A stretch of 64,000 bases of DNA from an uncultured Candidatus Saccharibacteria bacterium (GTDB lineage Bacteria > Patescibacteriota > Minisyncoccia > Phycocordibacterales > PCTT01), in assembly GCA_964566505.1 (NCBI GenBank), contig CAZMIM010000001.1, positions 199,690-263,689 on the forward strand, in the 5' to 3' direction. This document shows positions 6,664 to 52,419 of the stretch, piece after piece. Every line of letters starts with the position of its first letter. The stretch's first letter is position 1. A program made the translations under genes and the position numbers. The notes under the pieces are model-generated. The model ran no database searches. It saw only the letters and a list, made by a program, of their open reading frames with translations, and was not told where the DNA came from.

Positions 6664-6794
6664 CCCGATAGTGATAGAAAGTGCATATTAGGCACTTTCG
6701 ATAATTAAATTATTAATTCTTATTCTCAACATATATATCATTTATTTTACATCCCATTCTTCTTTCGTAAATCAATCACTATCGGGACCCATAA

Positions 6795-35208: not shown

Positions 35209-35636
35209 TAGATTTCTATTTTCTTACACACATATGCACCCAGAATAAAAAGAAGAAGAGATAGAGTTGCCGATATCATACAATACTGACAAATAGCATT
35301 TAAAACAAAGAGCTGTAGATAAACAAGATATAGACTTACGCCCAATCCAATCAACGGAAGTACTAGGAGCTTTTTAGCAAACGCCATATTTTTTGACCCA
35401 AGCACATAAAGACCCCCAAAGAAAAGTGATAGGTAGAAAAGAAGCCCGAACCCAGCAAGGGGAACACCAAACACTTCTGAATATATACTTGAAAGCACAA
35501 CATCACATCCTTCTACAATAGAGCAAATTACTTCTGTGTTTGAAAGATGAGAAATAGTTAAATACCCAGAATCAAGGATTCCTACAAATGATAGTAAAAC
35601 AATTATCCAAAATGTTGCTTGAACTTTTTCTGACAT
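35208..35636 (-). CDS. vitamin K epoxide reductase (VKOR) family membrane oxidoreductase
   Basis: Loop Cys pair (CSIVEGC) and TM CxxC (CQYC) in a 4-TM scaffold. Confidence 0.65.
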   Translation of the reverse strand: MSEKVQATFWIIVLLSFVGILDSGYLTISHLSNTEVICSIVEGCDVVLSSIYSEVFGVPLAGFGLLFYLSLFFGGLYVLGSKNMAFAKKLLVLPLIGLGVSLYLVYLQLFVLNAICQYCMISATLSLLLFILGAYVCKKIEI

Positions 35637-35641
35637 AGTCT

Positions 35642-36070
35642 CTATTTAGATGAACACCGATCACATGTGCCGAACATTTCAAAAGAGTGGTCTGTGATTT
35701 TGTTAAACTTCTCAGACTGCTCTAGTACTTGCCTAGAAAGAGAATCTGACTCACATATATAAAACTTTTCTATATAACCACAATCAGTACATACGATATG
35801 GTGGTGATGATCATCTCCATTAAATTCATAAAACATACTATCACGACGCATATCGACTTCTCGAAGTATTCCTTTATCTTTAAATAGTTTTAGATTTCGA
35901 TAAATCGTAACAAAGTGCACACCGCTATCTGCAAGAACATCAATAACATCGTCTGCACTAAATGGCCCCGAAAAAGCCATCACGATTGAGATTAGTTTGA
36001 TTCGCAAAGATGTAGATTTGATACCAGCAGAAGATAAAATTGATTTTGCTGAAGAGTTGTTTGAATGCAT
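35642..36070 (-). CDS. Fur-family metalloregulator (Zur-like by context)
   Basis: Winged-helix HFVTIYRNLKLF...; His-rich HHHH..CTDCG and C-terminal CDRC metal sites; divergent from the ZIP transporter. Confidence 0.85.
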   Translation of the reverse strand: MHSNNSSAKSILSSAGIKSTSLRIKLISIVMAFSGPFSADDVIDVLADSGVHFVTIYRNLKLFKDKGILREVDMRRDSMFYEFNGDDHHHHIVCTDCGYIEKFYICESDSLSRQVLEQSEKFNKITDHSFEMFGTCDRCSSK

Positions 36071-36124
36071 AGTAAAATATTACGTTGACATCAATATAGG
36101 GCTATATTACACTGTCTCTGGACT

Positions 36125-36145
36125 AAATGCAAATGATTTGCATTT
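36125..36145. promoter_or_regulatory. perfect 10-1-10 palindrome AAATGCAAATgATTTGCATTT in the fur/ZIP divergent promoter; candidate Fur/Zur operator
   Basis: Lies 38 bp upstream of the ZIP ATG and 55 bp upstream of the fur start; the same 21-mer recurs at 5502-5522 and 61204-61224. Confidence 0.4.
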
Positions 36146-36182
36146 GAAATAGGAGAGAGAAAACCTCAAAAAACACGAAAAA

Positions 36183-36947
36183 ATGAGCGTAGTCACATAC
36201 ACACTACTCGCTGCATCTTCAATAATGCTTATTTCACTCGTGGGAGTATTGTTTACATGGACTACCTTCAAAGTATTCATGGAACGAAACCTCCCCTACC
36301 TCGGCGCATTGTCTGCCGGAGTGTTTGGGATTGTAGCATTGCACTTAATTATGGAAGCGGCGCACATACTCGAAAATACTGCGATGATTGTATTGTATGC
36401 AGTCGTTGGAGTGTTTGCTCTCTGGAAGATTGGTACATGGTTTCCAGAGTCACACCACCACGAATCAGCCGAGTGCACAGACACTCATTCAAAGCGTGGC
36501 GCAAAGCACATGCTTATAGGAGACTCTCTTTGTAATATTGCCGATGGAGCCATTATCGCTCCTGCGTTTATGATAAGCGTACCACTTGGTATAAGCGCAA
36601 CAATCGGCATACTCACGCACGAAATCGTGCAAGAGATTGGAGAGTTCTTTCTATACAAAAAAGCAGGATACAGTACCAGAAAAGCCCTTGCGCTAAACTT
36701 CCTGTCTGCATCTACGATTTTCATCGGGGCTGGAGCAGGACTTGTTTTATCTCAACAACAGGATTTTCTTGGACCACTTCTTGCTATGGCTGGTGGAGGC
36801 TTCATCTATATGGTGATAGTCGACATGATGCCAAGCTCGTACAAAACAATGAAAGCTTCAGGAAAATACAGACAACACGGCCTTTCCTTTGTTGCTGGCG
36901 TTGTTTTGATGACAACTGTTTTGCTTTTTGGGCACATGGGACATTAA
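36183..36947 (+). CDS. zupT: ZIP-family divalent metal (zinc) transporter
   Basis: HEIVQEIGEF and His-rich loop HHHESAECTDTH; 8-TM ZIP architecture. Confidence 0.85.
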   Translation: MSVVTYTLLAASSIMLISLVGVLFTWTTFKVFMERNLPYLGALSAGVFGIVALHLIMEAAHILENTAMIVLYAVVGVFALWKIGTWFPESHHHESAECTDTHSKRGAKHMLIGDSLCNIADGAIIAPAFMISVPLGISATIGILTHEIVQEIGEFFLYKKAGYSTRKALALNFLSASTIFIGAGAGLVLSQQQDFLGPLLAMAGGGFIYMVIVDMMPSSYKTMKASGKYRQHGLSFVAGVVLMTTVLLFGHMGH

Positions 36948-37476
36948 AACGTGTCTCTCCCCTTTCAAAGCCCTCGCATCTTATGATGCGGGGGCTTTCT
37001 TGCATAAACACAAAATATGTTGTATTGTGTTTACAGAAACTGAACACTCACAAACCGAGGATATTTCCATGACCAGCGAGCCAGTGCTTGTCTTCATGTG
37101 TCTGTTAGTAGCCACTTTGTGCCTTTGGTACTACACAAGGCTAAGGTTTTTGAACGGAAATGAAGTCAACAAAATCCACGTTGTGTCAGCTATCGTGGTG
37201 TGTGTATCTGGAGTGATAATGTCATTCCATGGATGGTTTCAAATACAGGAGCTCCAAACGGTTTGGAGCGTCATTGAAACACTCTCAAGCGTTACATTAG
37301 CTGGAGTTATGCTTATGTGTAGCTTCCAGACATACTTCATGTTCAAAAAACGAAGAGAGACATACAATAGAAGGAGGTATGAATCAAACATCATTCCACT
37401 TCTAGATTTGCACATACCCACAATACTTTTGGCGTTAATTGTTACATCAACAATCGCTTCGACTTTCACCGGATAA
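36928..37476 (+). CDS. hypothetical membrane protein
   Basis: 4 TM helices; the start is probably the internal Met near 37069. Confidence 0.35.
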   Translation: MGTWDIKTCLSPFKALASYDAGAFLHKHKICCIVFTETEHSQTEDISMTSEPVLVFMCLLVATLCLWYYTRLRFLNGNEVNKIHVVSAIVVCVSGVIMSFHGWFQIQELQTVWSVIETLSSVTLAGVMLMCSFQTYFMFKKRRETYNRRRYESNIIPLLDLHIPTILLALIVTSTIASTFTG

Positions 37477-37516
37477 AATTCGAAAACCAAAAACCCCACA
37501 CTCTGTGTGGGGTTTT

Positions 37517-38050
37517 CTACATCTCTCTTGAGTCGTATGCCCAATGTATAAGCGATTGTCTTTGTTTTGTTCTGCATGCCCAGTCACCTTTTCTACAATT
37601 TTTAGTAAGTTGTGCCATGTGGCGCCTGTATGCCTTCCACCTCTTTATTTGTCTCTCATCTTCTTCAGGGATCCTTCTGCCTGAATAATACCGGCAATAC
37701 CACTCAAACCACCCTCGTGGGTCGTGCTTTTCATTTATCCATCCCTTCTTTCTCCATACAGAAAGTGGCTGACTTGCATGCACTCCAAAAAAATTGAGCG
37801 AATCGTCATGCTCCTCTGGAGAAAGTTTTGCCTTCTTAAACCAATCCTTAGGGTACTCGTCTTTTGTGTCTGTCATATATTTGCCTCCAAATACTCCTAG
37901 CTCTAGCATTTCTTTTGGTGAAAGGTCTGGTTTGAATTCTGGGTCAAAGTTTTTACCCATTGGTTCTACACGCTCGTATCGATAACCTTTCTGCATCTTG
38001 TTATTAACAACAACTTCTTTAGCCATATATAAAAACAAGATAATACACAA
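37517..38050 (-). CDS. conserved hypothetical protein (Trp/Arg-rich, DUF-like)
   Basis: MLELGVFGGKY ... GWFEWYCRYYSGRR ... RQIKRW pattern looks like a conserved domain of unknown function. Confidence 0.45.
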   Translation of the reverse strand: MCIILFLYMAKEVVVNNKMQKGYRYERVEPMGKNFDPEFKPDLSPKEMLELGVFGGKYMTDTKDEYPKDWFKKAKLSPEEHDDSLNFFGVHASQPLSVWRKKGWINEKHDPRGWFEWYCRYYSGRRIPEEDERQIKRWKAYRRHMAQLTKNCRKGDWACRTKQRQSLIHWAYDSREM

Positions 38051-38480
38051 GAAGCGCCAAACTTCCCCACCAACCCAGAATAGATACTAAAAATGATGCA
38101 GTAATTTTTCTTTGCATTTGTTTTGGAAGCAGTTTCTCTGAAAGCCCATTTCTCTCTTGTTTCAAAAGATAAGGACTTACTACAAATGTAAGGAATAGAC
38201 CATTAAGCACCAGAAGCACCGCAAGTATGGTGTGCACATACGATGTCCATACTCGCTCTACAGATGAGTAAAATAGCACACCACCAAAAATTGCCAGAAG
38301 TGTCCCAATCCATATAAGTGGTTTTGTTACTTTATGAGCCGTTGTTGTTGCTCTTGTCCAGTAACCTGAGTTACGGCCGAGAAACCCATGTAGATCGATC
38401 ACCGTTACGGCACCAAGACCTATTACGAATCCTGAGATAAATATAAACAGCCCTAAGAATTCTTGAGTTAATATTTCCAT
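38019..38480 (-). CDS. hypothetical integral membrane protein
   Basis: 153 aa, 4 TM helices. Confidence 0.45.
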   Translation of the reverse strand: MEILTQEFLGLFIFISGFVIGLGAVTVIDLHGFLGRNSGYWTRATTTAHKVTKPLIWIGTLLAIFGGVLFYSSVERVWTSYVHTILAVLLVLNGLFLTFVVSPYLLKQERNGLSEKLLPKQMQRKITASFLVSILGWWGSLALLVYYLVFIYG

Positions 38481-40473: not shown

Positions 40474-43400
40474 TTAACTTCGTCGACTTGTTACTTTCTT
40501 GGAGGATTTCTTTTTCGCTATTTTCTTTGTCGTCTTTTTGGCAACCTTCTTTTTAGGTGTAACAAACTTTGTACAGTCAATAGAAACAGGAGTGACTCCC
40601 TTTATCTTGCTAAATTCTTCTTTTATACGAGGAAGTGTCCGTATACTGCTATTAACAATAATGAGAAAGATGCCGTAATCTGCACCATACCCTCGCATGT
40701 ATTGACTCAAGCTCTTGTATGACTTTGAGGAGCTGACGCTTGTTGAACGAATGTCGCTATTTGATGTAAGTTTAACTTCCAAAATAACAGGACCTACAAA
40801 TCCGTATCGAATTATCAAATCGACTCGTTTGTCATCTAGCAAATCAGGCTCTCGCAAAAGATCAACGTGAAAACCTCGTTTAAGCATCACGTTTTCAATC
40901 TGTGATTTTAATGTCTTCTGAATCAATTTCTCGTACTCCTGTTTCTTCGTTTCGTAAATCTTACCTGTGAGAATAAGTTCATATGCTCCCTCTCCCTCAA
41001 TCCATCGACGTAAATCGGTATCAATCGCGTCATGTAAATGACGAGCCAGGTCTGCAGAAGTAATGATCCGCTTATCATCGTACTCCCGTGCTGAATTATA
41101 TTTTCGAACAGCTTCGGCAAACTGTGACGGTTTACCAATGGTATTGAGGTATGAACGGCGTAAGCTAACCATGCGAGCTGCAAGCCAATTCGCCCCCTCT
41201 TTTTTATTACCAACTAAAGCAATCTTTTCTTCAAGTAAACGCAAAGGCTTGTAGTCCCCATACTCTTTTAAGTTTTCGAAGTACGCATAAACTATTTCCC
41301 ATAAATATTGAGCATAAGGATGGTAACCGTCGCCGAGTGCCCAAACCTCGAGAGCCTTATCTATAAGATCTAAAAATTTTTCTTCGAATCCATAACTTTT
41401 TAATTCCATGAGTGGTTTTGCAAACTCTTTCCCAAAATGAAGTTCATCCTCAAAAGGCGTTACATCTTGAACAACACCAGATCTTGGTCTTATAGCACTT
41501 GCTGCAACTCTTGCCTGCACCTGTTCTAAGCGCCAATGTACTGCTTCTGGCTTAGCATACTTAGTAATGAGCAAACCATTAGCCTTTGTAGCAATAGCTT
41601 TCTCGTCATTAGACCCTTCTATGTATTCCGAAAAGATTTCCTTGAGGAAACCCTCATCCGGCTGAAGTAGTTCAGCCACAGACAAAGATTGCTCTCGATC
41701 ATACCTTCGGAATTGTGTCTCTCGCACAAAATCACGAAGGATCTGTCCAGCTGCAGTTAAATTATATTGCTCTGCTGCTTCGATAAGTGAGTCTGGTTGC
41801 CACCTCCACAAATCGCTATCTCGGTCGTTATAAATCCTTATCACAGAGTTTAGTTCTTCCGCAGAAAAATCGGGTACTAATTCAAACACGGTCTTTAAAT
41901 TTTCACTGTGCGCGAATGGTATAAAGCGAGCTATATTTGATCGATACGGTGTTATATCTATACCTCGATGTTTTGCTGCAGCAAGAGCATCTCCAAAAAC
42001 TATTGCTGCTCCGCTTGTAGTGTAGTTTCTGCTCGAACCTCCATCAGTCTCCGAATTTATTGTTAATCCGCGCTCTGCAGGATCGTGCCTAAGTACCTCC
42101 TGACGAATAAGCGTATCGAATCGCTCCCGATCAGCATCGCTCATTAATTTTTCGAGTTTCTCGACATTTGAATTGTAATCATGGAAAACTCGTGTCATGT
42201 ATTGTTGTGGAGCTGGTTCAAGTGCATTACGAAACTCCGAAAGAATTCTTTCATCGTACACATGCTCATGATCTGACGGTGGTTGTCTGCGTGCCTCCTC
42301 ATATTCTCTATAAGAATCAGGTAATTTTTCACGCCCTGCCTCATAAATAGCATCTGAGTCTTCGTCTCCTCGCAACTTAATACGAATTAAAGTATTCATT
42401 AAATGCATTTTGTGTAAGCCAGCTTCTAGCATCATATCTATATATTGACCAACATCAGACGGTGTGAGTATCTCTGCAAATAAATCTTGTGCAAAATATA
42501 AACCATTCTCTCCATCATCACTGTTCTGGATTTGACGAATGAGATTAGGAATAAAATCAGGATTCTCTTCACGCAAAAAATGCATTAATCCAATTACAAA
42601 CTGCGATTCTCCGCGTGTGTGTGCAACGGAGTAGTGTAAAGATTTTACAATTACCTCTAAGACAATTTCTCGCATCTCTTCGTCTGCAACAGCGCGAATA
42701 TGATCAACTAGCACATGGTCTTTGTCTTTGAAAATCGAGGAATCGTCCAGAAATTCCCTACGAAGTTGTTCATCTTCGTTATATTTTCGCAAGAAACGCT
42801 TCAGAGCACCGAGTCCCGTAACCTCGAAGAGTCCATATCTTCCGTGCAAATCATTGCTCCTTATGAGTTTTATGAATGCATCGACACTTTCATCTTTGTT
42901 AGGGTCAAGTTCACTACACAAAGAAACAAACTCCCTCATGACGAGTTCATCAGGAGCATTGGTCAAATCTGGTAATTCATCGATAACTGTCGGATCTCCA
43001 AGTTTTGCTAATGCCAATAATGCATGGCGCGGCAAGACTCCATTGTCAGATTGTCCAGATGCATAACTTATGAGCCGCCCACGCCAATAAGTGATATCAA
43101 TCTCCAATCCAGCACGTAATAAATAAGAAATTACATAAGATATGTTTCCTAAAGGAACATAGTACTTTGTTTCATTCGAGGTGAATGCCTCAGCCTCTTC
43201 AGTTTGTGCCTTTAAAAAAGATTCTAGGCTTGATGAATAGAACCCAGGAAGAGACGAGGTGAGCTGCCCAGGAATCCATTGTAATTTTGTATTGTGATAA
43301 GAAACAGAATCGATAAACAAACGCTCTTTGGTGGTGTCGGGAATAAATTTTGGATTAACTCTACTTAGGAAGTTGAAGAAGGCCTCGTCGACAACCTTAA

Positions 43401-44568
43401 ATGCCTGTCCATGAATTCCAGAGAAATCCAAAAGCTGACCGAGTATATCTCGATCCATATCAACAAAAAAACTAAGAGTGTTATACCAAGATGGATAAAA
43501 TTCATTTATCGTTTCGTCAGCAGCAAAACTAAAAGTTGCCCGTCTTGGTTCTGGGAATCGTGTCAATTCTTTTGCTGCAAGATATTCTTGAAATTCAGCA
43601 TTCTCAAATTCAATACTGTTCGTGTCCTCTTTTGAAATTTGCAATAATGAATTTTTCAAAAGGATATCGATACCTACTTGGGCAAGTACCATTAACTTGA
43701 TATCGGACCTTACATCGTCAAAAAAAGTTACTAACTCATCGCGAGTAATTGAATTCGCTTGATAAATCTCCATTGTCAAAGCCAACTTCTCCAACAGTCG
43801 CTTTAACACTTGCTCCATTTCACGAATATCTTGATTATTCTGAGCTTCAATTCTTAATTTTGAATAGATAAAATGTTCAAAAAGTTCATTTCTTGATATC
43901 TCCTGTACATCAGTAACTGACTTATCAGTCATAAACTGCTCAAAGAGAAAAAGATAGCGTGGAATTTGGATAATAATCCTTCCATGAAATTGCATTGCTC
44001 GCTGCATTAACACATCAATGTCAGCAGAGCTACGGCTTCCACTAGAGAGATATTCCCTGAGCTGATTCGAGGTAAATGGTTTTATGGAAATAAAACGATA
44101 TTTAGAAAAGACATTTGCATATCTTTCCATAAATACCCAACGACTTGATATATAAATAATTAGATTTGGGTACTGACGGGATATATTCTGGACCTCCTGA
44201 AGAATGTCAGAAAAATGTGATGAGGGAACCTCATCTAAAGCATCAAGTAATAATGCTTTTGGTTTCTTTGTTCCTTTCTTCACAAAGTTACTTATTTCCT
44301 CGAAAGAATTTGGAGATCGAAGAGGAATAAACTTAGTTGTAAATCCTTTGCTCTGAAATTCCACATCAATTCTCTTCATTAACTCTGTTTTGCCAATACC
44401 AGGCTCTCCAACCACTATCGTATTTTTATCTTGGGTAAGATCAGAGATAGTAGTTGGACTAGCATCGTCAAAAACAAAACCATGACCATATTTCCCATAC
44501 TCTTCTTTTGCCTCCTTAAAAGTAGAGGATACTTCTGTTACTGGGAATATATATCGAGAATCATCCAT
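40474..44568 (-). CDS. NACHT/STAND-family P-loop NTPase (1364 aa) with long alpha-helical middle region, C-terminal PD-(D/E)xK-like nuclease motif and Lys-rich tail
   Basis: Walker A GEPGIGKT and NACHT-type Walker B ALLLDALDE near the N-terminus; about 900 aa helical repeats; C-terminal RVDLIIRYGFVGPVILEVKL (D...E.K) then KKKVAKKTTKKIAKKKSSKK tail. Confidence 0.8.
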   Translation of the reverse strand: MDDSRYIFPVTEVSSTFKEAKEEYGKYGHGFVFDDASPTTISDLTQDKNTIVVGEPGIGKTELMKRIDVEFQSKGFTTKFIPLRSPNSFEEISNFVKKGTKKPKALLLDALDEVPSSHFSDILQEVQNISRQYPNLIIYISSRWVFMERYANVFSKYRFISIKPFTSNQLREYLSSGSRSSADIDVLMQRAMQFHGRIIIQIPRYLFLFEQFMTDKSVTDVQEISRNELFEHFIYSKLRIEAQNNQDIREMEQVLKRLLEKLALTMEIYQANSITRDELVTFFDDVRSDIKLMVLAQVGIDILLKNSLLQISKEDTNSIEFENAEFQEYLAAKELTRFPEPRRATFSFAADETINEFYPSWYNTLSFFVDMDRDILGQLLDFSGIHGQAFKVVDEAFFNFLSRVNPKFIPDTTKERLFIDSVSYHNTKLQWIPGQLTSSLPGFYSSSLESFLKAQTEEAEAFTSNETKYYVPLGNISYVISYLLRAGLEIDITYWRGRLISYASGQSDNGVLPRHALLALAKLGDPTVIDELPDLTNAPDELVMREFVSLCSELDPNKDESVDAFIKLIRSNDLHGRYGLFEVTGLGALKRFLRKYNEDEQLRREFLDDSSIFKDKDHVLVDHIRAVADEEMREIVLEVIVKSLHYSVAHTRGESQFVIGLMHFLREENPDFIPNLIRQIQNSDDGENGLYFAQDLFAEILTPSDVGQYIDMMLEAGLHKMHLMNTLIRIKLRGDEDSDAIYEAGREKLPDSYREYEEARRQPPSDHEHVYDERILSEFRNALEPAPQQYMTRVFHDYNSNVEKLEKLMSDADRERFDTLIRQEVLRHDPAERGLTINSETDGGSSRNYTTSGAAIVFGDALAAAKHRGIDITPYRSNIARFIPFAHSENLKTVFELVPDFSAEELNSVIRIYNDRDSDLWRWQPDSLIEAAEQYNLTAAGQILRDFVRETQFRRYDREQSLSVAELLQPDEGFLKEIFSEYIEGSNDEKAIATKANGLLITKYAKPEAVHWRLEQVQARVAASAIRPRSGVVQDVTPFEDELHFGKEFAKPLMELKSYGFEEKFLDLIDKALEVWALGDGYHPYAQYLWEIVYAYFENLKEYGDYKPLRLLEEKIALVGNKKEGANWLAARMVSLRRSYLNTIGKPSQFAEAVRKYNSAREYDDKRIITSADLARHLHDAIDTDLRRWIEGEGAYELILTGKIYETKKQEYEKLIQKTLKSQIENVMLKRGFHVDLLREPDLLDDKRVDLIIRYGFVGPVILEVKLTSNSDIRSTSVSSSKSYKSLSQYMRGYGADYGIFLIIVNSSIRTLPRIKEEFSKIKGVTPVSIDCTKFVTPKKKVAKKTTKKIAKKKSSKKVTSRRS

Positions 44569-44587
44569 AACAACAAATTATTACAAC

Positions 44588-44899
44588 CTACTTATGCCTA
44601 GCAGCACGAAGAAGTTTACGTGCCAAGGCCTCAAGCTCAGCGTCAGATCCTGCAGTTTTCTTCCTTACAGATTTTGAAGGTCGACCGAGAAAGTATTCGT
44701 AATCCTTCATAAACAAATCTGCGAGTATCACTAGATCTCTAATTTTCAAACTTCGCTCTCCTCTTTCAATAAGAGAAATAGCGGTTGGAGAATCAAATTC
44801 CAGTATTTGAGCAAGGTTTGTTTGTGAATATCCAGCTTCAAGTCGACATTCACGTATCTTCTCACCTAATTGTTTATCGAATTCATGGTCAGTCGCCAT
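44588..44899 (-). CDS. XRE-family helix-turn-helix transcriptional regulator
   Basis: HTH_XRE motif LGEKIRECRLEAGYSQTNLAQIL; 19 bp upstream of and co-oriented with the STAND gene. Confidence 0.75.
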   Translation of the reverse strand: MATDHEFDKQLGEKIRECRLEAGYSQTNLAQILEFDSPTAISLIERGERSLKIRDLVILADLFMKDYEYFLGRPSKSVRKKTAGSDAELEALARKLLRAARHK

Positions 44900-45020
44900 A
44901 ACTACTGCATTATATTATCCACAATTTGATTTGAAAAGATTAATCAAAATGATAAACTTGTTTATATAAGGAGTAGTGGTAGCAATCAAGCAATTAGAAG
45001 AATCATTATGAAAACAGCAT

Positions 45021-46289
45021 ATGAAAAAACTTGCTTGGTCTACAACCCAACAAAAGGTTAACGATCTGCTCCCCCAGGAGGTTAATCCCCGCACTATTTC
45101 CGACAAGCAAATGTCGGATCTTAAAAGAAGCCTCAAGAAATACAATCTTGTGGAGATTCCCGCTATTGATGTAGATGGGACGATATTAGCTGGTCATCAG
45201 CGTATTAAGGCACTGCAACTCCTTGGGCGCGGTGAGGATATGATTGATGTCCGTGTACCCAACCGAAAACTCACCAAGGAAGAATCTAAAACATATCTCA
45301 TAGCGTCCAACAAGCTTGGCGGTGACTGGGATTTTGATCTTCTGAAGTCTTTTGATTTCGATACCTTGGAGTTCGCAGGGTTTGATCCCATCGAAGTCGG
45401 GGAACTCTTCGACAGAGATAACGAAGTTGCCGAAGAAGACTTTGATGTTGAGAAAGAACTAAAAAAGATTAAGAAGCCAAAAACAAAGCTTGGCGACATC
45501 GTTGTTCTTGGTAATCACCGTATTCTATGTGGCGACTCCACTAAGAAAGAGAACCTGAAGAGACTCTTCGGGAACAAAAAGGCATCGATGATATACAGCG
45601 ACCCTGTATACAACATTGATATCGACTATGACGGTGGTATTGGCGGAAAGAAAGAATACGGCGGAGATGTAAACGATACACGTTCGTTCGATGAGTACCG
45701 CACATTCCTCAACGACAGCATGGAAGCAGCACTTGCCGTTTCCAAAGAAGACCTACATATCTTCTATTGGTGCGATCAGATATACATCGGCGTTGTACAA
45801 AACCTGTACCGGTGGCTTGGTATTGCTAATAAGCGTGTGTGTTTGTGGCTCAAGAATAATCAGAACCCTGTTCCCTCGGTTGCGTTCAATAAAGCGTATG
45901 AACCTGCGGTATACGGCGTACGAGGCAAACCATACCTCGCCAACATACATAACCTCAACGAGGTAATGAATAAGGAACTCGGTACTGGCAATTCCCTGCT
46001 CGACGACATCTGGACAGCAAAACGTCTGACCGCCAAAGAGTACGAGCACGCCACATCAAAACCGCCACAGCTTCACGAGAAAGCGATTAAACGCTGCACC
46101 AAACCAAACGACATTATTCTCGACAGTTTCCTTGGTTCTGGCAGCACCCTTATTGCCGCAGAATCACTTGGTCGAAGAGTATATGGGTGTGAACTTGAAC
46201 CTGCGTTCTGCGATCTCATCGTTCGGAGATGGGAAAAGCTAACAGGCAAGAAAGTGTCCTATGAAAAAGACAAAGGTACTGGTAAATAA
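45021..46289 (+). CDS. ParB-like nuclease domain fused to a DNA methyltransferase (N6-A/N4-C class)
   Basis: N-terminal ParB/Srx fold (EIPAIDVDGTILAGHQRIKA); MTase motif IV-like SDPVYN and motif I LDSFLGSGSTLIAAE. Confidence 0.75.
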   Translation: MKKLAWSTTQQKVNDLLPQEVNPRTISDKQMSDLKRSLKKYNLVEIPAIDVDGTILAGHQRIKALQLLGRGEDMIDVRVPNRKLTKEESKTYLIASNKLGGDWDFDLLKSFDFDTLEFAGFDPIEVGELFDRDNEVAEEDFDVEKELKKIKKPKTKLGDIVVLGNHRILCGDSTKKENLKRLFGNKKASMIYSDPVYNIDIDYDGGIGGKKEYGGDVNDTRSFDEYRTFLNDSMEAALAVSKEDLHIFYWCDQIYIGVVQNLYRWLGIANKRVCLWLKNNQNPVPSVAFNKAYEPAVYGVRGKPYLANIHNLNEVMNKELGTGNSLLDDIWTAKRLTAKEYEHATSKPPQLHEKAIKRCTKPNDIILDSFLGSGSTLIAAESLGRRVYGCELEPAFCDLIVRRWEKLTGKKVSYEKDKGTGK

Positions 46290-46830
46290 ACTGCTTGCGG
46301 AAATTGAGAAAGCTCCTGTTATACAAGTGGCGTGCGATAAGGTAGGTATCTCAAGAAACACCTTCTACCGTTGGATCAAAGAGGACTCTGAGCTTATGGA
46401 GCGCATGAGTGAAGCCATGTCTCTTGGCACTGGGTTGGCAAATGATGTTGCGATAAGTAACGTTTTAGAGGGTGTAAAAAGAAAAGATCCGATGTACACA
46501 AAGTACTGGCTGAGCCACAAACATCCTGACTTCAGGAGACCCTTCGTCCATAAGGTTGACTCTGATGATCTACTCACTCATTTCCGGTCTGTTATGGAAG
46601 GTATACGGAAACGTGAAATTGCTCAAGAAATTGCAGATGAAGCAACCAGAATTGAAGGCGTAAGATTAGAGAAGGCACGAGAAGAAGTACAGGGATTCAT
46701 GGACAAGTGGAAAAATGTAATAAGCGAATCTCAACACAAAGAAGCCAGGAAACTATTCGAAGAATGGAAAGAAGACTTCCTCAGTGAAAAAGCTAGCCAA
46801 GCACAGCGCCTTAAAAAGCCAAAGAAATAA
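46261..46830 (+). CDS. HTH-domain protein resembling phage terminase small subunit / DNA-packaging HTH proteins
   Basis: N-terminal HTH VACDKVGISRNTFYRWIKED; overlaps the MTase gene end by 29 bp. Confidence 0.45.
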   Translation: MKKTKVLVNKLLAEIEKAPVIQVACDKVGISRNTFYRWIKEDSELMERMSEAMSLGTGLANDVAISNVLEGVKRKDPMYTKYWLSHKHPDFRRPFVHKVDSDDLLTHFRSVMEGIRKREIAQEIADEATRIEGVRLEKAREEVQGFMDKWKNVISESQHKEARKLFEEWKEDFLSEKASQAQRLKKPKK

Positions 46831-47173
46831 ATCCCCAAATAGTTATTACAACGAACACAGCAATAATGATCCAATACTTCTTGTTCCTTCTTGTGGTTTC
46901 TTGTTTTTCTTCCGCAATAACTTCTTCAATATCTTTTTCAGAATCCATTTCTTGAAGAATCTTCTTTGCTCTTGGCGAGTCTAAAGGAATCATGTCTGTA
47001 CTCTGACATTTTGCACATGCCGGGTGATACGAACTAGATCGCCATACTGAATAAATAAGACCAGGAACAAGAAAGCAGAGCCATAGTACGATTTCAACAC
47101 CAAGACTTCCTTTTGCTAATCTTTTCGGTTTACCAACGTGACCGCACTGGGTACAAATTAATGTTTTTGCCAT
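46811..47173 (-). CDS. zinc-ribbon plus TM small protein
   Basis: CTQCGH...CAKCQS Cys4 ribbon followed by two TM helices. Confidence 0.4.
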   Translation of the reverse strand: MAKTLICTQCGHVGKPKRLAKGSLGVEIVLWLCFLVPGLIYSVWRSSSYHPACAKCQSTDMIPLDSPRAKKILQEMDSEKDIEEVIAEEKQETTRRNKKYWIIIAVFVVITIWGFISLAF

Positions 47174-47503: not shown

Positions 47504-48883
47504 ATGGAACTAGCGAATATTACTCAATCAGCGTCTCAGCAAGCTGTCCAAATTGAGAAAGTAAAATATGTACTTTATGCTCGTAAATCGACCGAGCAAG
47601 ATGAGAAACAAGCACTCTCAATTGAGTCTCAAGTTAAAGAAATGCTTGCAATAGCTGAGCGAGAGAATCTAGAGATTGTTGATATTAGACGTGAGTCCCA
47701 CTCAGCAAAAAACTCGGGACAACGACCAGTCTTTAAAGAAATTCTTGAGGATATACGAAGAGAACGGTTCAACGGAATTCTCGTTTGGCATCCAGATAGA
47801 CTCAGCAGAAACGCTGGAGACTTAGGATCAGTTGTTGACCTTATGGACGAGAAATTACTTGTCCAAATAAGAACATACAGCCAAATATTCACCAACAACC
47901 CAAATGAGAAATTCCTCCTTATGATTCTTTGTTCTCAAGCGAAACTTGAGAACGACAACAAAAGCATCAACGTAAAGCGTGGTTTGAGGACAAGAGTTGA
48001 AATGGGACTTTGGCCAGCCCCTGCTCCAACTGGATATTTGAAAGAAAAACGAATGGATCGTAAATGCGAAACCATCATTGATCCAGAACGAGCGCCGGTT
48101 ATTAAACAAATGTTTGAGAAAGTCGCCTATGAAAAGTGGTCGGGGCGCAAACTCTATAACTGGCTCAAATTTGATCTCAATTTCAAAACTGTTGGAGGAA
48201 ACAAGAATCTCACGCTAGGAAATATCTATGTCATCCTCCAAAATCACTTTTACTACGGCACATTTGAATATCCAAAGAAGAGCGGTAATTGGTATCAAGG
48301 AAAACACAAACCAATCATCACTAAAGAGCTTTTTGATCAGGCACAGATGCAGCTTAAAGGAAACGAGCTAAAGACTCGAAAAGAAAAAGAGTTTGCGTTC
48401 ACAAGGCTAATGATCTGCGGACTCTGTGGATCTGGAATTACCGCTGATGAAAAATACAAAAAATTGAAAGACGGCACTGTAAACACTCACATATACTATG
48501 GCTGCACTAAAGTACGAGATAGAAACTGTAAGTGTGGCTACATTAACGAAGCTGATTTGATAGCTCAGTTTGAGAAGCTAATTGATGAGATTAATTTGGA
48601 TGAAATTGGTATTAAAGAAAAGATTAAACAGGAAGTGGTTCGTTTCAAGAAATTTCAGCAAATGCTAGTAGGTAATATCCAGAAAATTGAAGTGGTAGAT
48701 ATAGATATACGAAATTATACGATATATCTTCTTAGAGAAGGTTCGATAGCAGAAAAACGAGAGCTGTTGGGTAATTTAAAAAGCAAAATTTTCCTTGCGA
48801 ATAAAGAAATTAGGCTTTCTCAAGATCTAACCTCTTTAGAGTCATTGCATTCACAACGACAATCACCGTTGAGAGGCTCATGA
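47504..48883 (+). CDS. large serine recombinase (resolvase/invertase catalytic domain, recombinase domain and zinc-ribbon)
   Basis: Catalytic YARKSTEQDE...SIESQ; C-terminal CGLCGS...YYGCTK...CKCG zinc ribbon; coiled-coil tail. Confidence 0.85.
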   Translation: MELANITQSASQQAVQIEKVKYVLYARKSTEQDEKQALSIESQVKEMLAIAERENLEIVDIRRESHSAKNSGQRPVFKEILEDIRRERFNGILVWHPDRLSRNAGDLGSVVDLMDEKLLVQIRTYSQIFTNNPNEKFLLMILCSQAKLENDNKSINVKRGLRTRVEMGLWPAPAPTGYLKEKRMDRKCETIIDPERAPVIKQMFEKVAYEKWSGRKLYNWLKFDLNFKTVGGNKNLTLGNIYVILQNHFYYGTFEYPKKSGNWYQGKHKPIITKELFDQAQMQLKGNELKTRKEKEFAFTRLMICGLCGSGITADEKYKKLKDGTVNTHIYYGCTKVRDRNCKCGYINEADLIAQFEKLIDEINLDEIGIKEKIKQEVVRFKKFQQMLVGNIQKIEVVDIDIRNYTIYLLREGSIAEKRELLGNLKSKIFLANKEIRLSQDLTSLESLHSQRQSPLRGS

Positions 48884-50795
48884 CAAGCGCACCTATTTCA
48901 GGGCGCAAAAAGAAACCCCACACAGCAAATACTCCGGCTGCTGCGGGAATGGCAACGATATTGTACCCAAGTGCCCAGACGAGGTTCTGAATCATCTTTG
49001 CGTATACCTTCTTTGAGAGCGTTATGAGGCGCACGATATCTTGAGGGTCATTGTCGGTAAGCACCACATCGCCAGATTCAACCGCGACATCGGTGCCTGC
49101 GCCAATGGCGACTCCTGCGTCGGCTTGTGTGAGTGCAGGAGCATCGTTCACTCCATCACCGACCATAAGCACTACACTGCCATCCTCCTGAAGCTTCTTG
49201 ATGTGAGTGTATTTATCTTCCGGCAAGACATTTGCAAAATAGGTATCAATGCCAAGTTCTTCTGATACCGACTGTGCGACCTGTTCGTTGTCGCCGGTAA
49301 GCATAGCGACTTTCACACCCATGCCGTGTAGCTTTTGGACCGCCTCCTTTGAAGATTCTTTTATCGCATCGGAGAGAACCAGATATCCGAGCACCGCTTC
49401 CTTACTTGCTACAAAGACGAGCGTGCCATTTAGATTAGTGGGAGCGTCAAGATGTAAGTTTAAACTTCGAACCAGACGTTCGTTTCCTGCAAAGTATTCC
49501 GTGCCCTCAATTTCTGCTTTCACACCCTGTCCTGCAACATTTTGAAAATTATCAATATCGGAAATAGATACCTTTTGCTCTCGTGCATATTTGAGTATTG
49601 ACTGTCCGATGATATGTGAAGAATGCTGTTCGAGAGACGCTGCGATGGAGAGAATGTTGTTTGTATCTTGCTCTGCCAGAGGAATAACATCGGTCACGCC
49701 GAATTCTCCCTTAGTGAGCGTTCCTGTCTTATCAAACACTACATAGTCAGCTTTTCGTATTGTCTCTATCTTCGAAAGGTCTTTGATGAAAAATCCGTTC
49801 TTCACGGCAAGTGACGTGGTGATGGTTGTCACTGTAGGAATCGCAAGACCAAGCGCATGCGGACATGCAATAACGAGCACCGTAATAGCGAGCGTCACAG
49901 CGAACACAAACGGCTGACCGATCACTAGTGTCCACACGAGAAGCGTACCGAGTGCCGTGATGCCAGCAACAAAGGTGAGTACGGCAGATGCTTTATCCGC
50001 AATTCTCTGTGAACGTGGCTTTGTTTGACCGGCTTGTGCTATGAGCTTTTGTATTTGCCCGACTGTTGAATGCTCTCCAACACGGGAGAGCTTGATGGTA
50101 AGCGATCCATCAAGACAAATTGATCCCGCGACCACTTGAGCATCCACTTCTTTCTTCACCGGCTTTGACTCACCGCTTATAAGCGACTCATCTACATTTG
50201 CGAATCCTTTGGTAATAACACCATCCGCTGGAATCTTTTCACCCGGCTTCACTATGACAATATCGCCCTCCTGAAGCTCGGCGATATCGACATCAACTTC
50301 CGTGCCATTCTCAAGCTTATGCGCTTTCTTCGGCAAGAGCTTTGCGACTTCGGAGAGCGCATCTCCTGCAGCAGAGCTTGATTTGGCCTCGAGGTAATGT
50401 CCGAAAAGAAGTACCCACACGAGGGTGGAGATTTCAAGATAAAACTCAGCATGAAGTGAGGTAATAAACGTTGAGGCAACGGAAAAAAGATACCCGCTAC
50501 CCACCGCAAGCGACACGAGTGTCATCATGCCGTATTTGCGAGATTTTATTTCATGCCACGCGTGCTGGAAGAATACGAGCGCAAACCCAAAGATAATTGT
50601 TGCAATCCCAAACTGTATCCACTTGTTAAGTCCGAAGGAGATGCCAAGTATCTCTGATACTTTCGGATGTACGAGTACGAGTGGAATGAGGAGAAATGTG
50701 ACAATCCAGAATCGTCTTAAGTACTGCGCGGCAGATCCGTGACTCATTCCATGTGCTCCATGACTTGCGTGATTGTGATGGTGCTCATGTGCCAT
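48810..50795 (-). CDS. copA: copper-translocating P1B-type ATPase (no N-terminal HMA domain; His-rich N-terminus)
   Basis: CPH motif (IACPHALGLAIP), DKTGTLT, GDGVNDAPAL; N-terminal MAHEHHHNHASHGAHGMSH. GC is noticeably higher than the surrounding genes. Confidence 0.88.
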   Translation of the reverse strand: MAHEHHHNHASHGAHGMSHGSAAQYLRRFWIVTFLLIPLVLVHPKVSEILGISFGLNKWIQFGIATIIFGFALVFFQHAWHEIKSRKYGMMTLVSLAVGSGYLFSVASTFITSLHAEFYLEISTLVWVLLFGHYLEAKSSSAAGDALSEVAKLLPKKAHKLENGTEVDVDIAELQEGDIVIVKPGEKIPADGVITKGFANVDESLISGESKPVKKEVDAQVVAGSICLDGSLTIKLSRVGEHSTVGQIQKLIAQAGQTKPRSQRIADKASAVLTFVAGITALGTLLVWTLVIGQPFVFAVTLAITVLVIACPHALGLAIPTVTTITTSLAVKNGFFIKDLSKIETIRKADYVVFDKTGTLTKGEFGVTDVIPLAEQDTNNILSIAASLEQHSSHIIGQSILKYAREQKVSISDIDNFQNVAGQGVKAEIEGTEYFAGNERLVRSLNLHLDAPTNLNGTLVFVASKEAVLGYLVLSDAIKESSKEAVQKLHGMGVKVAMLTGDNEQVAQSVSEELGIDTYFANVLPEDKYTHIKKLQEDGSVVLMVGDGVNDAPALTQADAGVAIGAGTDVAVESGDVVLTDNDPQDIVRLITLSKKVYAKMIQNLVWALGYNIVAIPAAAGVFAVWGFFLRPEIGALVMSLSTVIVVVNAMTLKRLDLEKA

Positions 50796-50797
50796 AG

Positions 50798-51295
50798 TTA
50801 GATCGTCATAAATACTTCACCCTTTGCGCCATCGTGGGTGATCTCATAGATAACAAAATCAGACGTTTTTGGTCCGGGCATTCCTGGAGAGCCAGAGGGC
50901 ATACCTGCCATGCCGATACCTTTGATGTCGGGACGTTCAGCAAGTAATTTCTGAACCGCTTCCTCCGGTACGTGCCCCTCAACAACATAGCCGTCAATTT
51001 CCATTGTGTGACAACTCTCAAGCTCGTATGGCACATCGAATTGCTCTTTGATCGACTGCATGTCTGCTATGCCCTCAATATCAACACCGTATCCTTTCTT
51101 CTCTAAGTACGCTGCGTATTGTCCGCAACATCCGCAACTTGGTGATTTATAAATTGTCGCCAGGAGCCCGTTCGCAGGAGCTTCAGAGATTGTGTCTCCT
51201 TTTGGGAGTGTTTGCATCGCCATGACACCGATAACACCGATGACTGCAACAACGAGTATGCCGATAATAAGGTTGCTCTTCATACTAGTTTTCAT
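50798..51295 (-). CDS. DUF411 domain metal-binding protein (copper-resistance associated)
   Basis: SPSCGCCGQY and ESCHTMEIDGYVVEGHVP motifs of DUF411; signal/TM N-terminus. Confidence 0.65.
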   Translation of the reverse strand: MKTSMKSNLIIGILVVAVIGVIGVMAMQTLPKGDTISEAPANGLLATIYKSPSCGCCGQYAAYLEKKGYGVDIEGIADMQSIKEQFDVPYELESCHTMEIDGYVVEGHVPEEAVQKLLAERPDIKGIGMAGMPSGSPGMPGPKTSDFVIYEITHDGAKGEVFMTI

Positions 51296-51758
51296 TGAAC
51301 CATGTTTGTAGCCAACCTTTCATTTGCTCAACTTCAGCTGACTGACTTGCAATGATGTTGTTTGCAAGTTCAATAAGCTCTGGGCGATCTGTCTGCTCTA
51401 GTAGGTTCTCTGACATTCTGATCGCACCAAGATGATGTACAATCATGCCGCGAAGCCATGCCTCCTCGTATGCATCACCAGTTTGTCCGCGACCAATAAG
51501 CATCATTTCATCCATCATGTGCATCAATTCGCCATCACCGTTCACGATTTCATCTTCGTAAGAACCTCCCATGTGTTCTTCCATTTCCTCGTACATGGAT
51601 TCATTTGAGAAGAAACCGCGATGCGGCATATTGTTGGCACCAAAGAAGTAGCCGAGAAGCAGGCCGACGATAAGGGCGAGAAGACCAATAATGATTGTTT
51701 GATTTTTGTTTTCCATACTATTTTTTCTTAGCTTTATTAAATATACTGATAATCTCAC
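51285..51758 (-). CDS. DUF305 domain protein (copper-resistance associated)
   Basis: GMIVHHLGAIRMSE matches the DUF305 HH..M core; N-terminal TM. Confidence 0.65.
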   Translation of the reverse strand: MRLSVYLIKLRKNSMENKNQTIIIGLLALIVGLLLGYFFGANNMPHRGFFSNESMYEEMEEHMGGSYEDEIVNGDGELMHMMDEMMLIGRGQTGDAYEEAWLRGMIVHHLGAIRMSENLLEQTDRPELIELANNIIASQSAEVEQMKGWLQTWFNEN

Positions 51759-51996
51759 TGATCGCTTTTTTCTCCTGCCCCTGTTTCATCTGATGAATGA
51801 CGTGCTCGGAGAGGTGATTCTCAAGCATCAGATCCTCAACGGCCGAGAGTGCGCTGCGTACTGCGGATGACTGCGTAATAATATCTACGCAGTACTGCTC
51901 CTCATCGACCATCTTTTGGAGTCCGCGTACCTGACCCTCAACGCGCCGGAGACGATTTTGCACCTGTTTTTTGGTAGCTGCTTTCATATGCAACAT
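51718..51996 (-). CDS. csoR: CsoR/RcnR-family metal-sensing transcriptional repressor
   Basis: LRRVEGQVRGLQKMVDEEQYCVDIITQSSAVRSAL with conserved Cys/His metal ligands; the start is probably the second ATG (51987). Confidence 0.85.
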   Translation of the reverse strand: MLHMKAATKKQVQNRLRRVEGQVRGLQKMVDEEQYCVDIITQSSAVRSALSAVEDLMLENHLSEHVIHQMKQGQEKKAISEIISIFNKAKKK

Positions 51997-51998
51997 AT

Positions 51999-52015
51999 TA
52001 TACCCCTAGGGGGTA
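51999..52015. promoter_or_regulatory. CsoR-type operator ATACCCCTAGGGGGTAT overlapping a TATAAT -10 box immediately upstream of csoR
   Basis: GC-rich interrupted palindrome of the ATACCCnnnGGGGTAT type used by CsoR family repressors; minus-strand reading GTATACCCCCTAGGGGTATAAT-ATG. Confidence 0.6.
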
Positions 52016-52183
52016 TACGTGTACAGGTGGTATCCACAACAAGAAAGTCACCCGTTCGGGGGTGACTTTCTTGTTTGATTACTGCACTCAGCAGGTATGC
52101 AATTTATCGGAATAGATAATCAATCGGCTTTTTGACGATTCTCGTGCGCTCGTGGAGCGTAGAGATCTCGTGCTAGCTCGATT

Positions 52184-52257: not shown

Positions 52258-52316
52258 ATGTATTTAATTTTTATATATCTGCCAAATTTCAAGGTCCAAC
52301 TTGGACCGCAATACAA

Positions 52317-52349
52317 AATCTTGCAAGCATCCTACCATTAGACGATCCG
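52317..52349 (-). repeat. 30-bp direct duplicate (1 mismatch) of the tRNA-Gln 5' end plus 4-nt upstream flank; head of a degenerate pseudo-tRNA (about 52262-52349)
   Basis: cct[g/a]ccattagacgatccggcaatgtatt occurs at 52232-52264 and 52317-52349; the downstream part has lost the anticodon and T-arm pairing. Confidence 0.6.
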
Positions 52350-52419
52350 GCAATGTATTACCTAAAAACTGGCAATATACAAAACAGATTACCGTAGTAA
52401 TCTGCTTTGTGCAACGAAT

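Follow-up and report, generated by a model that had tools for sequence, protein, structure and literature searches.

A predicted self-regulated copper-detoxification operon, probably acquired from other Patescibacteria and probable cargo of a degenerate phage-like element beside a tRNA-Gln gene

The DNA analysed here, called the window throughout, is a stretch of 64,000 nucleotides (nt) from contig CAZMIM010000001.1 (assembly GCA_964566505.1) of an uncultured Candidatus Saccharibacteria bacterium of the Patescibacteriota, and its subject is a four-gene copper cassette, csoR-DUF305-DUF411-copB. The initial annotation had described four co-oriented genes for a CsoR-family repressor, DUF305 and DUF411 proteins and a P1B-type ATPase, placed them between a serine recombinase and a tRNA-Gln gene, and read them as a copper-resistance operon. 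This outline is borne out: Pfam matches all four genes to these families on the minus strand, the flanking features lie where they had been placed, and the family assignments of the four genes support the copper reading. The locus contains the following features.

47504-48883, plus strand: large serine recombinase, 459 amino acids (aa), with Resolvase, Recombinase and Zn_ribbon_recom domains
48810-52017, minus strand: the copper cassette csoR-DUF305-DUF411-copB, from gene calls with Pfam and NCBIfam
48810-50795, minus strand: copB-type (P1B-3) copper ATPase, 661 aa; Pfam E1-E2_ATPase and Hydrolase, TIGR01511
50798-51283, minus strand: DUF411 (CopG-like) gene, 161 aa; PF04214, 84 bits
51285-51716, minus strand: DUF305 (CopM-like) gene, 143 aa; PF03713, 65.6 bits, above its cut-off
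51718-51987, minus strand: csoR, 89 aa; PF02583, 97 bits
52184-52257, minus strand: tRNA-Gln(TTG), called by ARAGORN; Rfam, 58 bits

The genes of the cassette are packed tightly. The junctions read TAG-T-ATG between csoR and the DUF305 gene, TAG-T-ATG again between the DUF305 and DUF411 genes, and TAA-CT-ATG between the DUF411 gene and copB, leaving stop-to-start gaps of 1-2 nt, and none is accompanied by a Shine-Dalgarno sequence. Such tight junctions without Shine-Dalgarno sequences are the pattern expected of one translationally coupled transcript. Immediately upstream of csoR lie a candidate operator and a predicted promoter.

51999-52017, minus strand: CsoR-type operator TATACCCC-CTA-GGGGTATA, with 8-nt arms and a 3-nt spacer, read from the sequence
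51997-52025, minus strand: sigma-70-like promoter, a consensus prediction with 10 of 12 consensus matches

On the plus strand the operator reads TATACCCCTAGGGGGTATA (51999-52017). The 17-mer first singled out here (52000-52016) as a CsoR-type interrupted GC palindrome fused to TATAAT lies within it, and that description holds. The predicted -35 element (TGTACA, 52025-52020) and -10 box (TATAAT, 52002-51997) are separated by a 17-nt spacer containing the operator, and on the coding strand the TATAAT overlaps the operator's right arm. The same layout of operator, -10 box and ATG is kept upstream of csoR in about 18 related loci, whose -35 elements read TTGnnn or TTTACn and whose -10 boxes read TATAAT, TATACT or TATCAT. 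The operator is the sole exact match in the window, where 0.03 sites with at most three mismatches are expected by chance. It fits the CsoR box of Corynebacterium glutamicum, ATACCCCnnnGGGGTAT, exactly (PMC5057107), and it resembles the CsoR-bound copA and copX sites of Staphylococcus aureus, ATACCtataGGGGGTAC and ATACCctggGTGGGTAT (PMC5947656). The site has the interrupted G/C tract, the AT-rich inverted repeats and the position at a copper-efflux promoter that would be expected of an operator bound by a Cu(I)-sensing CsoR.

The csoR ATG lies 6-9 nt past the -10 box in all the homologous loci compared (about 18). This distance leaves no space for a leader and points to the ATG at 51987 as the start; homologues are annotated at the same length of 89 aa. 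The mRNA is thus probably leaderless, with csoR beginning at 51987. The start given by the open reading frame (ORF) finder, 51996, abuts the -10 box, and its use is unlikely. Locus L022 has two csoR copies (1158-1467 and 6647-6938), about 78% identical to the window csoR, each with its own ATACCCC..GGGG operator overlapping a -10 box.

The repressor matches PF02583 over model positions 2-78 of 78, far above the cut-off of 22.8 bits, and its best PDB matches are the CsoR structures 4M1P, 4ADZ and 2HH7. In alignment with solved CsoRs its X-Y-Z sensor residues are C33-H58-H62, with H62 at the position of the second Cys of 4M1P, 4ADZ, 2HH7 and 5FMN. The family named by the initial annotation is therefore right (PF02583), but the sensor is not canonical: in place of the Cys-His-Cys triad (C36, H61 and C65 in Mycobacterium tuberculosis) it has Cys-His-His. 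This x-C-H-H pattern, within the motif NHLSEHV, is conserved across the Patescibacteria CsoR clade. Residues Y32 and E78 align with the second-shell positions Y35 and E81 of the M. tuberculosis protein, and the N-terminus, MKAATKK, has no His and so no metal ligand at position W. The CsoR/RcnR family's ligand fingerprint (W-X-Y-Z, second shell A-B) is defined in PMC4235346; the x-C-H-H group, which includes Thermus thermophilus, is still assigned to the copper sensors (PMC8643695). By its ligand positions, the window CsoR appears to be a member of this Thermus-type group.

The ATPase encoded by the last gene has a His-rich N-terminus, MAHEHHHNHASHGAHGMSHGS, and Pfam finds no HMA domain in it. 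P1B-3 pumps carry CPH in the fourth core transmembrane (TM) helix, YN(x)4P and MSxST in the last two helices, and DKTGT. The window protein has CPH in TM4, within LVIACPHALGLAI, followed by DKTGT at residue 354 and by YNIVAIP and MSLST in the last two helices. The same P1B-3 motifs are present in all other members of the copB clade examined, one of which reads MSAST, and are missing from a second, CPC-type ATPase in L012. The TIGR01511 copper ATPase model scores 575 bits against a cut-off of 397, whereas the equivalog model for E. coli CopA reaches 402 bits where its cut-off is 1316. The marks of P1B-1 (CopA-type) pumps are lacking, with CPH instead of CPC and without an HMA domain. The pump is thus predicted to be CopB-type (P1B-3), not CopA. 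The first description, a CPx P1B ATPase that lacks an HMA domain and whose N-terminus is His-rich, remains accurate, and only its name, copA, has to be replaced by copB on account of CPH and MSLST. The NCBI-annotated form of the protein has 645 aa. His-rich N-termini that replace HMA domains have been described for S. aureus CopB and CopX (PMC5947656, PMC10233261).

The two middle genes encode proteins with hydrophobic N-terminal membrane anchors, from which an action outside the membrane is expected. The DUF305 protein continues with a Met/His/Glu-rich stretch and a single DUF305 repeat, which aligns to either repeat of Synechocystis CopM (5FEJ) with up to 52 bits. The DUF411 protein has a CGCC motif after its anchor and matches Pseudomonas aeruginosa CopG (PDB 6WIS) at E = 7e-23; the alignment keeps CxCC (CGCC), SCHT and GMPxGSPGM (GMPSGSPGM), as would be expected of a CopG protein. 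Both window proteins are TM-anchored, unlike P. aeruginosa CopG and Synechocystis CopM, which are periplasmic, and CopM has two repeats where the window protein has one. In Vibrio parahaemolyticus, the DUF411 gene copG lies beside copA and is copper-induced (PMC12341060).

It is conceivable that regulator and pump sense another metal, e.g. Ni/Co (as RcnR does) or Zn/Cd. The X-Y-Z ligands of RcnR are likewise Cys-His-His, and a ligand fingerprint by itself does not predict the metal sensed (PMC4235346); NCBIfam gives weak RcnR and FrmR matches; and the C-H-H type CsoR of Thermus is released by several metals in vitro (PMC5057107). However, the N-terminal W-position His that RcnR needs is missing, the second shell has the Tyr-Glu pair that is typical of Cu(I) CsoRs (PMC4235346), and the operator is of the interrupted-G/C-tract type used by CsoRs (PMC5057107, PMC5947656). 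The operon partners are also copper-associated (TIGR01511 above its cut-off, CopG-like and CopM-like proteins), and sister loci add a multicopper oxidase. The missing His, the Tyr-Glu pair, the operator type and the copper partners together lead to rejection of an RcnR-like Ni/Co sensor, and a specificity for any other metal is improbable.

By homology, these features suggest how the operon would work. At low copper, a CsoR tetramer would sit on the palindrome, filling the promoter spacer and overlapping the -10 box, and so block RNA polymerase. Binding of Cu(I) at Cys33'-His58-His62, coupled through Tyr32 and Glu78, would make CsoR leave the DNA. Derepression would then yield a leaderless polycistronic mRNA, from which the four genes would be expressed together by translational coupling. 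CopB, with its His-rich N-terminus, would export cytoplasmic copper, and the membrane-anchored CopG-like and CopM-like proteins would handle copper at the outer membrane face or cell surface. Since csoR is the first gene of the operon, the circuit would be negatively autoregulated.

The origin of the cassette can be approached through its composition, its relatives and its junctions. The initial annotation had argued for horizontal acquisition from a GC content of ~50% against a ~38% background, and had proposed to check this by GC and tetranucleotide analysis and by a search for the nearest taxonomic neighbours of copA and csoR. The direction of the shift is right, but the figures are not: GC is 47.2% in the cassette and 39.7% in the rest of the window, where no other 3187-bp stretch exceeds 42.9% (z = 3.8). 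The cassette is also the most atypical 3.2-kb stretch of the window by tetranucleotides (z = 5.6, exceeded by 0 of 272 windows), so that its composition is not uniform with the flanks by either measure. Its tetranucleotide usage is nearer to the flanks of the cassette copies in L005 and L007 than to its own host. At third codon positions, GC (GC3) is 0.467 in copB and 0.470 in the DUF411 gene, compared with a gene mean of 0.324. Elsewhere, in 22 further Patescibacteria loci, the GC of copB follows that of the flanks (r = 0.89, mean GC3 difference ~0); as copB is compositionally at home there, the window copy seems not yet to have drifted to host composition.

Relatives of CopB at 57-93% identity are found in ~30 Patescibacteria species representatives, and the next ones, at 49% or less, in Chloroflexota and Bacteroidota. 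Close relatives in Patescibacteria only, and the gap below them, suggest that the operon circulates within the phylum. The closest copies of the cassette, in UBA2105 (L001-L005), have 88% DNA identity and 93-99% aa identity over the four proteins; a second copy, in L007, has 83% DNA identity. The UBA2105 and L007 genomes have ~46-47% GC. The DNA homology to L005 and L007 is confined to 48827/48847-52017, i.e. from the operator to the stop codon, and the contexts differ, with a tRNA-Ala upstream in L007 and a restriction-modification and helicase neighbourhood in UBA2105. Still other contexts hold further copB copies with 92-94% aa identity.

The core genes of the host have no such close relatives. 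In a search of 5.8 billion proteins the best non-self FtsX has 76% identity, and the closest relative, L085 (FtsE 83%, FtsX 76%, PrfB 72%), shares the order prfB-ftsE-ftsX-tRNA-Gln(TTG) while lacking the cassette at this place. The homologues used for host placement are named Campbellbacteria, Wolfebacteria or Paceibacteria.

Taken together, four independent lines (composition, copies in unrelated contexts, the identity of the cassette compared with that of FtsX and the empty-site comparison described below) uphold horizontal acquisition, which is well supported. The nearest copB relatives are Patescibacteria copies in unrelated contexts, and the likely donor is another Patescibacteria lineage of ~46-47% GC, not another phylum. 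On the same comparisons, the acquisition appears recent. A native, vertically inherited cassette, its high GC due to Ala/Gly/Val-rich membrane proteins, would agree with the confinement of CopB homologues of 57-93% to Patescibacteria, with the L021 cassette, which likewise lies downstream of ftsE-ftsX and tRNA-Gln, and with copB GC at codon positions 1+2 (0.483), which is within the host range. Such a cassette would not explain the shift at synonymous sites (GC3 0.467 against 0.324) and in tetranucleotides, nor the absence of the cassette at this site in the nearest core-gene relatives; nor would it explain why the operon alone is 88% DNA-identical to a copy in a genome of other GC and other context when the best FtsX match is just 76%, or why the insertion has destroyed two stop codons. 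Vertical inheritance is thus already largely refuted and is very improbable. In L116-L119, copB is 92-93% identical to that of the window, and the cassette has no adjacent csoR or DUF305 gene; the order is a DsbA-like gene, three ~192-aa genes, DUF411, a 57-aa ORF and then copB, and the cassette adjoins a UvrD helicase, a DpnII restriction-modification system and a KAP NTPase. This gene set indicates that the composition of the cassette is itself mosaic.

Comparison with the cassette copies and with loci that have an empty site defines the insertion almost to the base.

48822-52037: inserted block of ~3.2 kb (the acquired cassette), from homology limits to copies and empty-site loci
52038-52117: terminal segment of the element, 80 nt, conserved, with 85% identity to L086/L087 and L095

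The left junction lies at ~48821/48822 and the right junction between 52018 and 52037. Homology to the empty-site loci (L086/L087 and the IMG/VR contig L095) ends at 52038 and, on the other side, at the recombinase C-terminus. In these loci the order is tRNA-Gln, ~40 nt, the 80-nt segment and the recombinase stop, with TerS-like and methylase genes beyond the recombinase; FtsX of L086/L087 is 72% identical to that of the window. The 80-nt segment contains a perfect 16-bp hairpin (52038-52075), a likely terminator that directly follows the recombinase stop codon in the empty-site loci. In the window the cassette separates this segment from the recombinase. The segment stands beside tRNA-Gln TTG in L086/87 and CTG in L095; because it accompanies the recombinase at two different tRNA-Gln genes, it is taken as element DNA, which places the cassette inside the element. 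The cassette thus appears to be cargo within the recombinase-bearing element and not merely adjacent to it, and the insertion appears to fall exactly between the recombinase stop codon and its terminator hairpin.

The native stop codons of copB and of the recombinase gene were both lost at the left junction. The CopB C-terminus is 3 aa longer than in homologues (EKA), read from recombinase-gene DNA, and the last ~19 aa of the recombinase are read from the antisense strand of copB. The two genes converge with a 74-nt ORF overlap (48810-48883), and the recombinase is cut off from its hairpin, now 3.2 kb away. In convergent overlapping units, transcription of each should run antisense into the other. 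Copper induction could, speculatively, run antisense into the recombinase gene and so link metal stress to the stability of the element.

An assembly chimera, in which a 3.2-kb fragment of another population was stitched into the contig, has in its favour that the contig is metagenome-assembled, that samples of this kind often contain related cassettes and that the insert is foreign in composition. But the flanks of the insert both belong to one element and are contiguous in L086 and L095, two precise misjoins would be needed, and both interrupted ORFs stay open and end shortly past the junction. A chimera is rejected on these grounds as scarcely credible.

It is also possible that the cassette landed independently at a tRNA-Gln hotspot and abuts the recombinase element by chance. 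Against this, the window cassette has on its tRNA side the hairpin segment that comes after the recombinase stop in L086/87 and L095, and copper genes occupy the equivalent position by homologous recombinases in at least 5 other loci. An independent landing could still account for the lack of defined att sites or element ends, for the other tRNA-Gln scars (half of the gene copied in tandem in the window, its 3' end repeated in L085), for close copies in UBA2105 and L007 that are not beside a homologous recombinase, and for the single, distant CopB match among viral contigs. It is considered unlikely, and insertion as cargo of the recombinase-bearing element is preferred.

What remains recognisable of this carrier element, besides the recombinase, lies at 44588-47173 and includes the following genes, all from Pfam.

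44588-44899, minus strand: helix-turn-helix (HTH) regulator
45021-46289, plus strand: DNA methylase
46261-46830, plus strand: TerS-like HTH protein
46811-47173, minus strand: zinc-ribbon membrane protein, 120 aa

The recombinase matches PF00239, PF07508 and PF13408 above their cut-offs and has the catalytic Ser motif (YARKSTEQ), and its C-terminus is altered by the 19-aa read-through. Its best NCBIfam match is CcrB, the SCCmec recombinase, far below the cut-off. On 27 IMG/VR contigs, where the module is classed as viral, there are homologues of the recombinase at 46-76% identity. L011-13, L030, L086 and those viral contigs with enough upstream sequence keep the order methylase, TerS, TerL, recombinase; the L086 methylase is annotated ParB_N + N6_N4_Mtase. 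In L092 (IMG/VR), large ORFs past the recombinase resemble tail and lysis genes, judged by their N-terminal sequences alone. Tetranucleotide usage in the window is mildly atypical from ~40 kb onward. The left boundary of the element could not be set from L085, where synteny stops right after tRNA-Gln and the genes beyond it (a DEAD helicase, a che cluster) have no counterpart in the window.

The tRNA-Gln(TTG) gene, found downstream of ftsX in two relatives as well (L085 and L086/87), is the probable integration target of the element. A direct repeat of its 3' end that would mark the far end of the element was looked for and is absent from the window. A convergent tRNA-Gln or tRNA-Ser gene stands 0.1-10 kb past the recombinase stop in the window and in L086/87, L095, L094, L106, L097, L030, L011 and L017. 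The interval is variable, and in L011, L017 and L030 it holds copper genes (CsoR, CopB, multicopper oxidase, DsbA-like protein, rhodanese-domain protein); in L012 and L013 copper genes also lie on the 3' side of the recombinase. The viral contig L109 has a P-type ATPase fragment and a DUF305 gene beside the recombinase. CopB is nearly absent from IMG/VR contigs, with one match at 45%, so the cargo link draws on genome contigs and on L109. Weak Thr-leader and RNAI matches over the hairpin fell below the Rfam threshold and were dismissed; Rfam otherwise gave the tRNA alone.

The reading that best joins these results is that the cassette is a self-regulated copper-detoxification operon, recently acquired from other Patescibacteria and now cargo of a degenerate phage-like element; we give it a probability of about three in four, based on comparison of sequences. 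Several points weigh against it. The third ligand of the sensor is His and not Cys, and together with the response of the C-H-H type Thermus CsoR to several metals in vitro (PMC5057107) this means that the copper specificity of the window CsoR is not assured. The NCBIfam CopM model gives the DUF305 protein 58.7 bits, below its cut-off of 90. The window has no TerL homologue, although one is present in L011-13, L030 and most viral contigs, and no structural genes were recognised at 40-49 kb, as they would be in an intact prophage. Their absence is what makes the element look like a degenerate, decayed remnant, and, with no left end defined, the term phage-like draws on homologues elsewhere. No att sites were identified, and the comparisons give no evident mechanism for the insertion of the cassette: repeat searches over 38-57 kb revealed no flanking direct or inverted repeats around it, and ~25 homologous loci show no evident shared core site after the recombinase stop. 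The source is, moreover, a metagenome-assembled contig, and the junctions are known from assembled sequence alone.

In kind, the operon is ordinary and involves no new mechanism; its delivery route in Patescibacteria is the noteworthy part. It resembles the Gram-positive CsoR operons (C. glutamicum, Bacillus subtilis copZA, S. aureus copAZ, M. tuberculosis cso) in having a DUF156 repressor and, at the promoter that serves its P1B ATPase, an interrupted G/C palindrome, and, as in M. tuberculosis cso, csoR sits in the operon that it would repress. Unlike these operons, it has no CopZ chaperone, a CopB-type instead of a CopA-type pump, co-transcribed extracytoplasmic DUF305 and DUF411 proteins, a C-H-H instead of a C-H-C triad, a predicted leaderless mRNA with downstream genes lacking Shine-Dalgarno sequences, and a Patescibacterium as host.

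The T. thermophilus CsoR (TTHA1719, PDB 3AAI) shares the replacement of one Cu(I)-ligand Cys by His, x-C-H-H (PMC8643695), and represses a cop operon that contains csoR itself (PMC10318464). 3AAI is among the PDB matches of the window CsoR (E = 2.9e-10), but the window protein is less similar to it than to Geobacillus or Streptomyces CsoR. The Thermus operator, CCCCACCCCACCTGGGGTGGGG, lacks the AT-rich ends found in the window (PMC10318464), and Thermus CsoR has an extra N-terminal His5, which is missing from the window protein (PMC5057107).

Ecologically, the window cassette has its nearest analogue in copB-mco and copXL of S. aureus. Plasmid-borne or associated with SCCmec, ACME or COMER, these also comprise a horizontally moved, CsoR-repressed P1B-3 pump whose N-terminus is His-rich, in some cases together with a multicopper oxidase (PMC5947656, PMC10233261). 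The core-genome CsoR acts in trans in S. aureus, whereas in the window csoR travels with the pump, and the partner genes are CopL or the multicopper oxidase there and CopM-like and CopG-like genes here. SCCmec is moved by large serine recombinases. The carrier in the window, unlike those of S. aureus, is phage-like and tRNA-integrated, a module with methylase, TerS and TerL relatives.

Among mobile elements, the arrangement is like that of temperate phages and phage-derived islands that use a large serine recombinase to enter tRNA genes and bear accessory 'moron' genes by the attachment site: the recombinase is the last conserved gene, a convergent tRNA follows closely, and variable accessory DNA of 0-10 kb separates recombinase and tRNA. 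It departs from temperate phages in that the window copy has neither TerL nor recognised structural genes. The literature searches made here brought up no specific work on copper operons or on serine-recombinase prophages of Patescibacteria (Candidate Phyla Radiation, CPR), nor any on copper-resistance cargo of such elements in these bacteria.

The locus offers a clean, datable case of genes passing from one Patescibacteria lineage to another, for which there is an empty-site control and the junctions are placed at base level. Transfers so finely resolved appear uncommon in Patescibacteria, reduced-genome uncultivated bacteria known almost solely from metagenome bins. More interesting than the operon is its precise insertion as cargo in a recurrent Patescibacteria phage-like element. 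The recurrence of a serine-recombinase module with copper genes in several genomes suggests that copper stress is a real selective force. It is a tentative and on balance doubtful idea that Patescibacteria host a family of phage-derived elements, integrating at tRNA-Gln or tRNA-Ser and with a dedicated cargo position beginning at the recombinase stop, that repeatedly gain copper operons; if true, temperate phages or their remnants would be a main route of metal-resistance exchange for these tiny host-dependent bacteria. The loci also provide natural variants of the less-studied x-C-H-H CsoR with a compact leaderless promoter-operator, testable in vitro without culturing.

Some further observations concern the element family and its target. 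Several viral contigs, L099-L103 and L114 (IMG/VR), have a tandem pair of TerL-like genes (43-46% identity to the TerL of L030) and a pair of neighbouring methylase genes before the recombinase, and the module of methylase, TerS, TerL and recombinase is very uniform across these contigs. In the window, a degenerate tandem copy of tRNA-Gln at 52290-52359 (minus strand) stands 95 nt upstream of the intact tRNA. Identity over the 5' half (36 nt) of this copy is 94%, its anticodon region carries ~11 extra nt and the T-arm has decayed, and neither ARAGORN nor Rfam called it; it may be the scar of an earlier integration or excision. In L085 (11020-11200) the last 17 nt of tRNA-Gln(TTG), GAATCCCTGTCCGGCAG, are repeated ~150 nt downstream, an apparent footprint left by a small or excised integrative element that points to this tRNA as a recurrent target.

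Two other parts of the window deserve mention. Directly left of the methylase/recombinase module, 40474-44899 (minus strand) holds a small HTH_3/HTH_31 regulator and, adjoining it, a gene for a 1364-aa protein with a NACHT-like ATPase N-terminus and a Lys-rich C-terminal tail; this protein matches the antiphage protein EruA weakly, and its gene is probably a defence gene. A second metal-related neighbourhood, at 35208-38480, contains VKOR, a Fur-family regulator, a ZIP transporter and two uncharacterised genes (37517-38050 and 38019-38480); in L019 and L025, homologues of these two (59-71%) also lie no more than ~10 kb from copB. GC3 is raised, at 0.39-0.46, in the ZIP gene and its two neighbours at 36928-38050.

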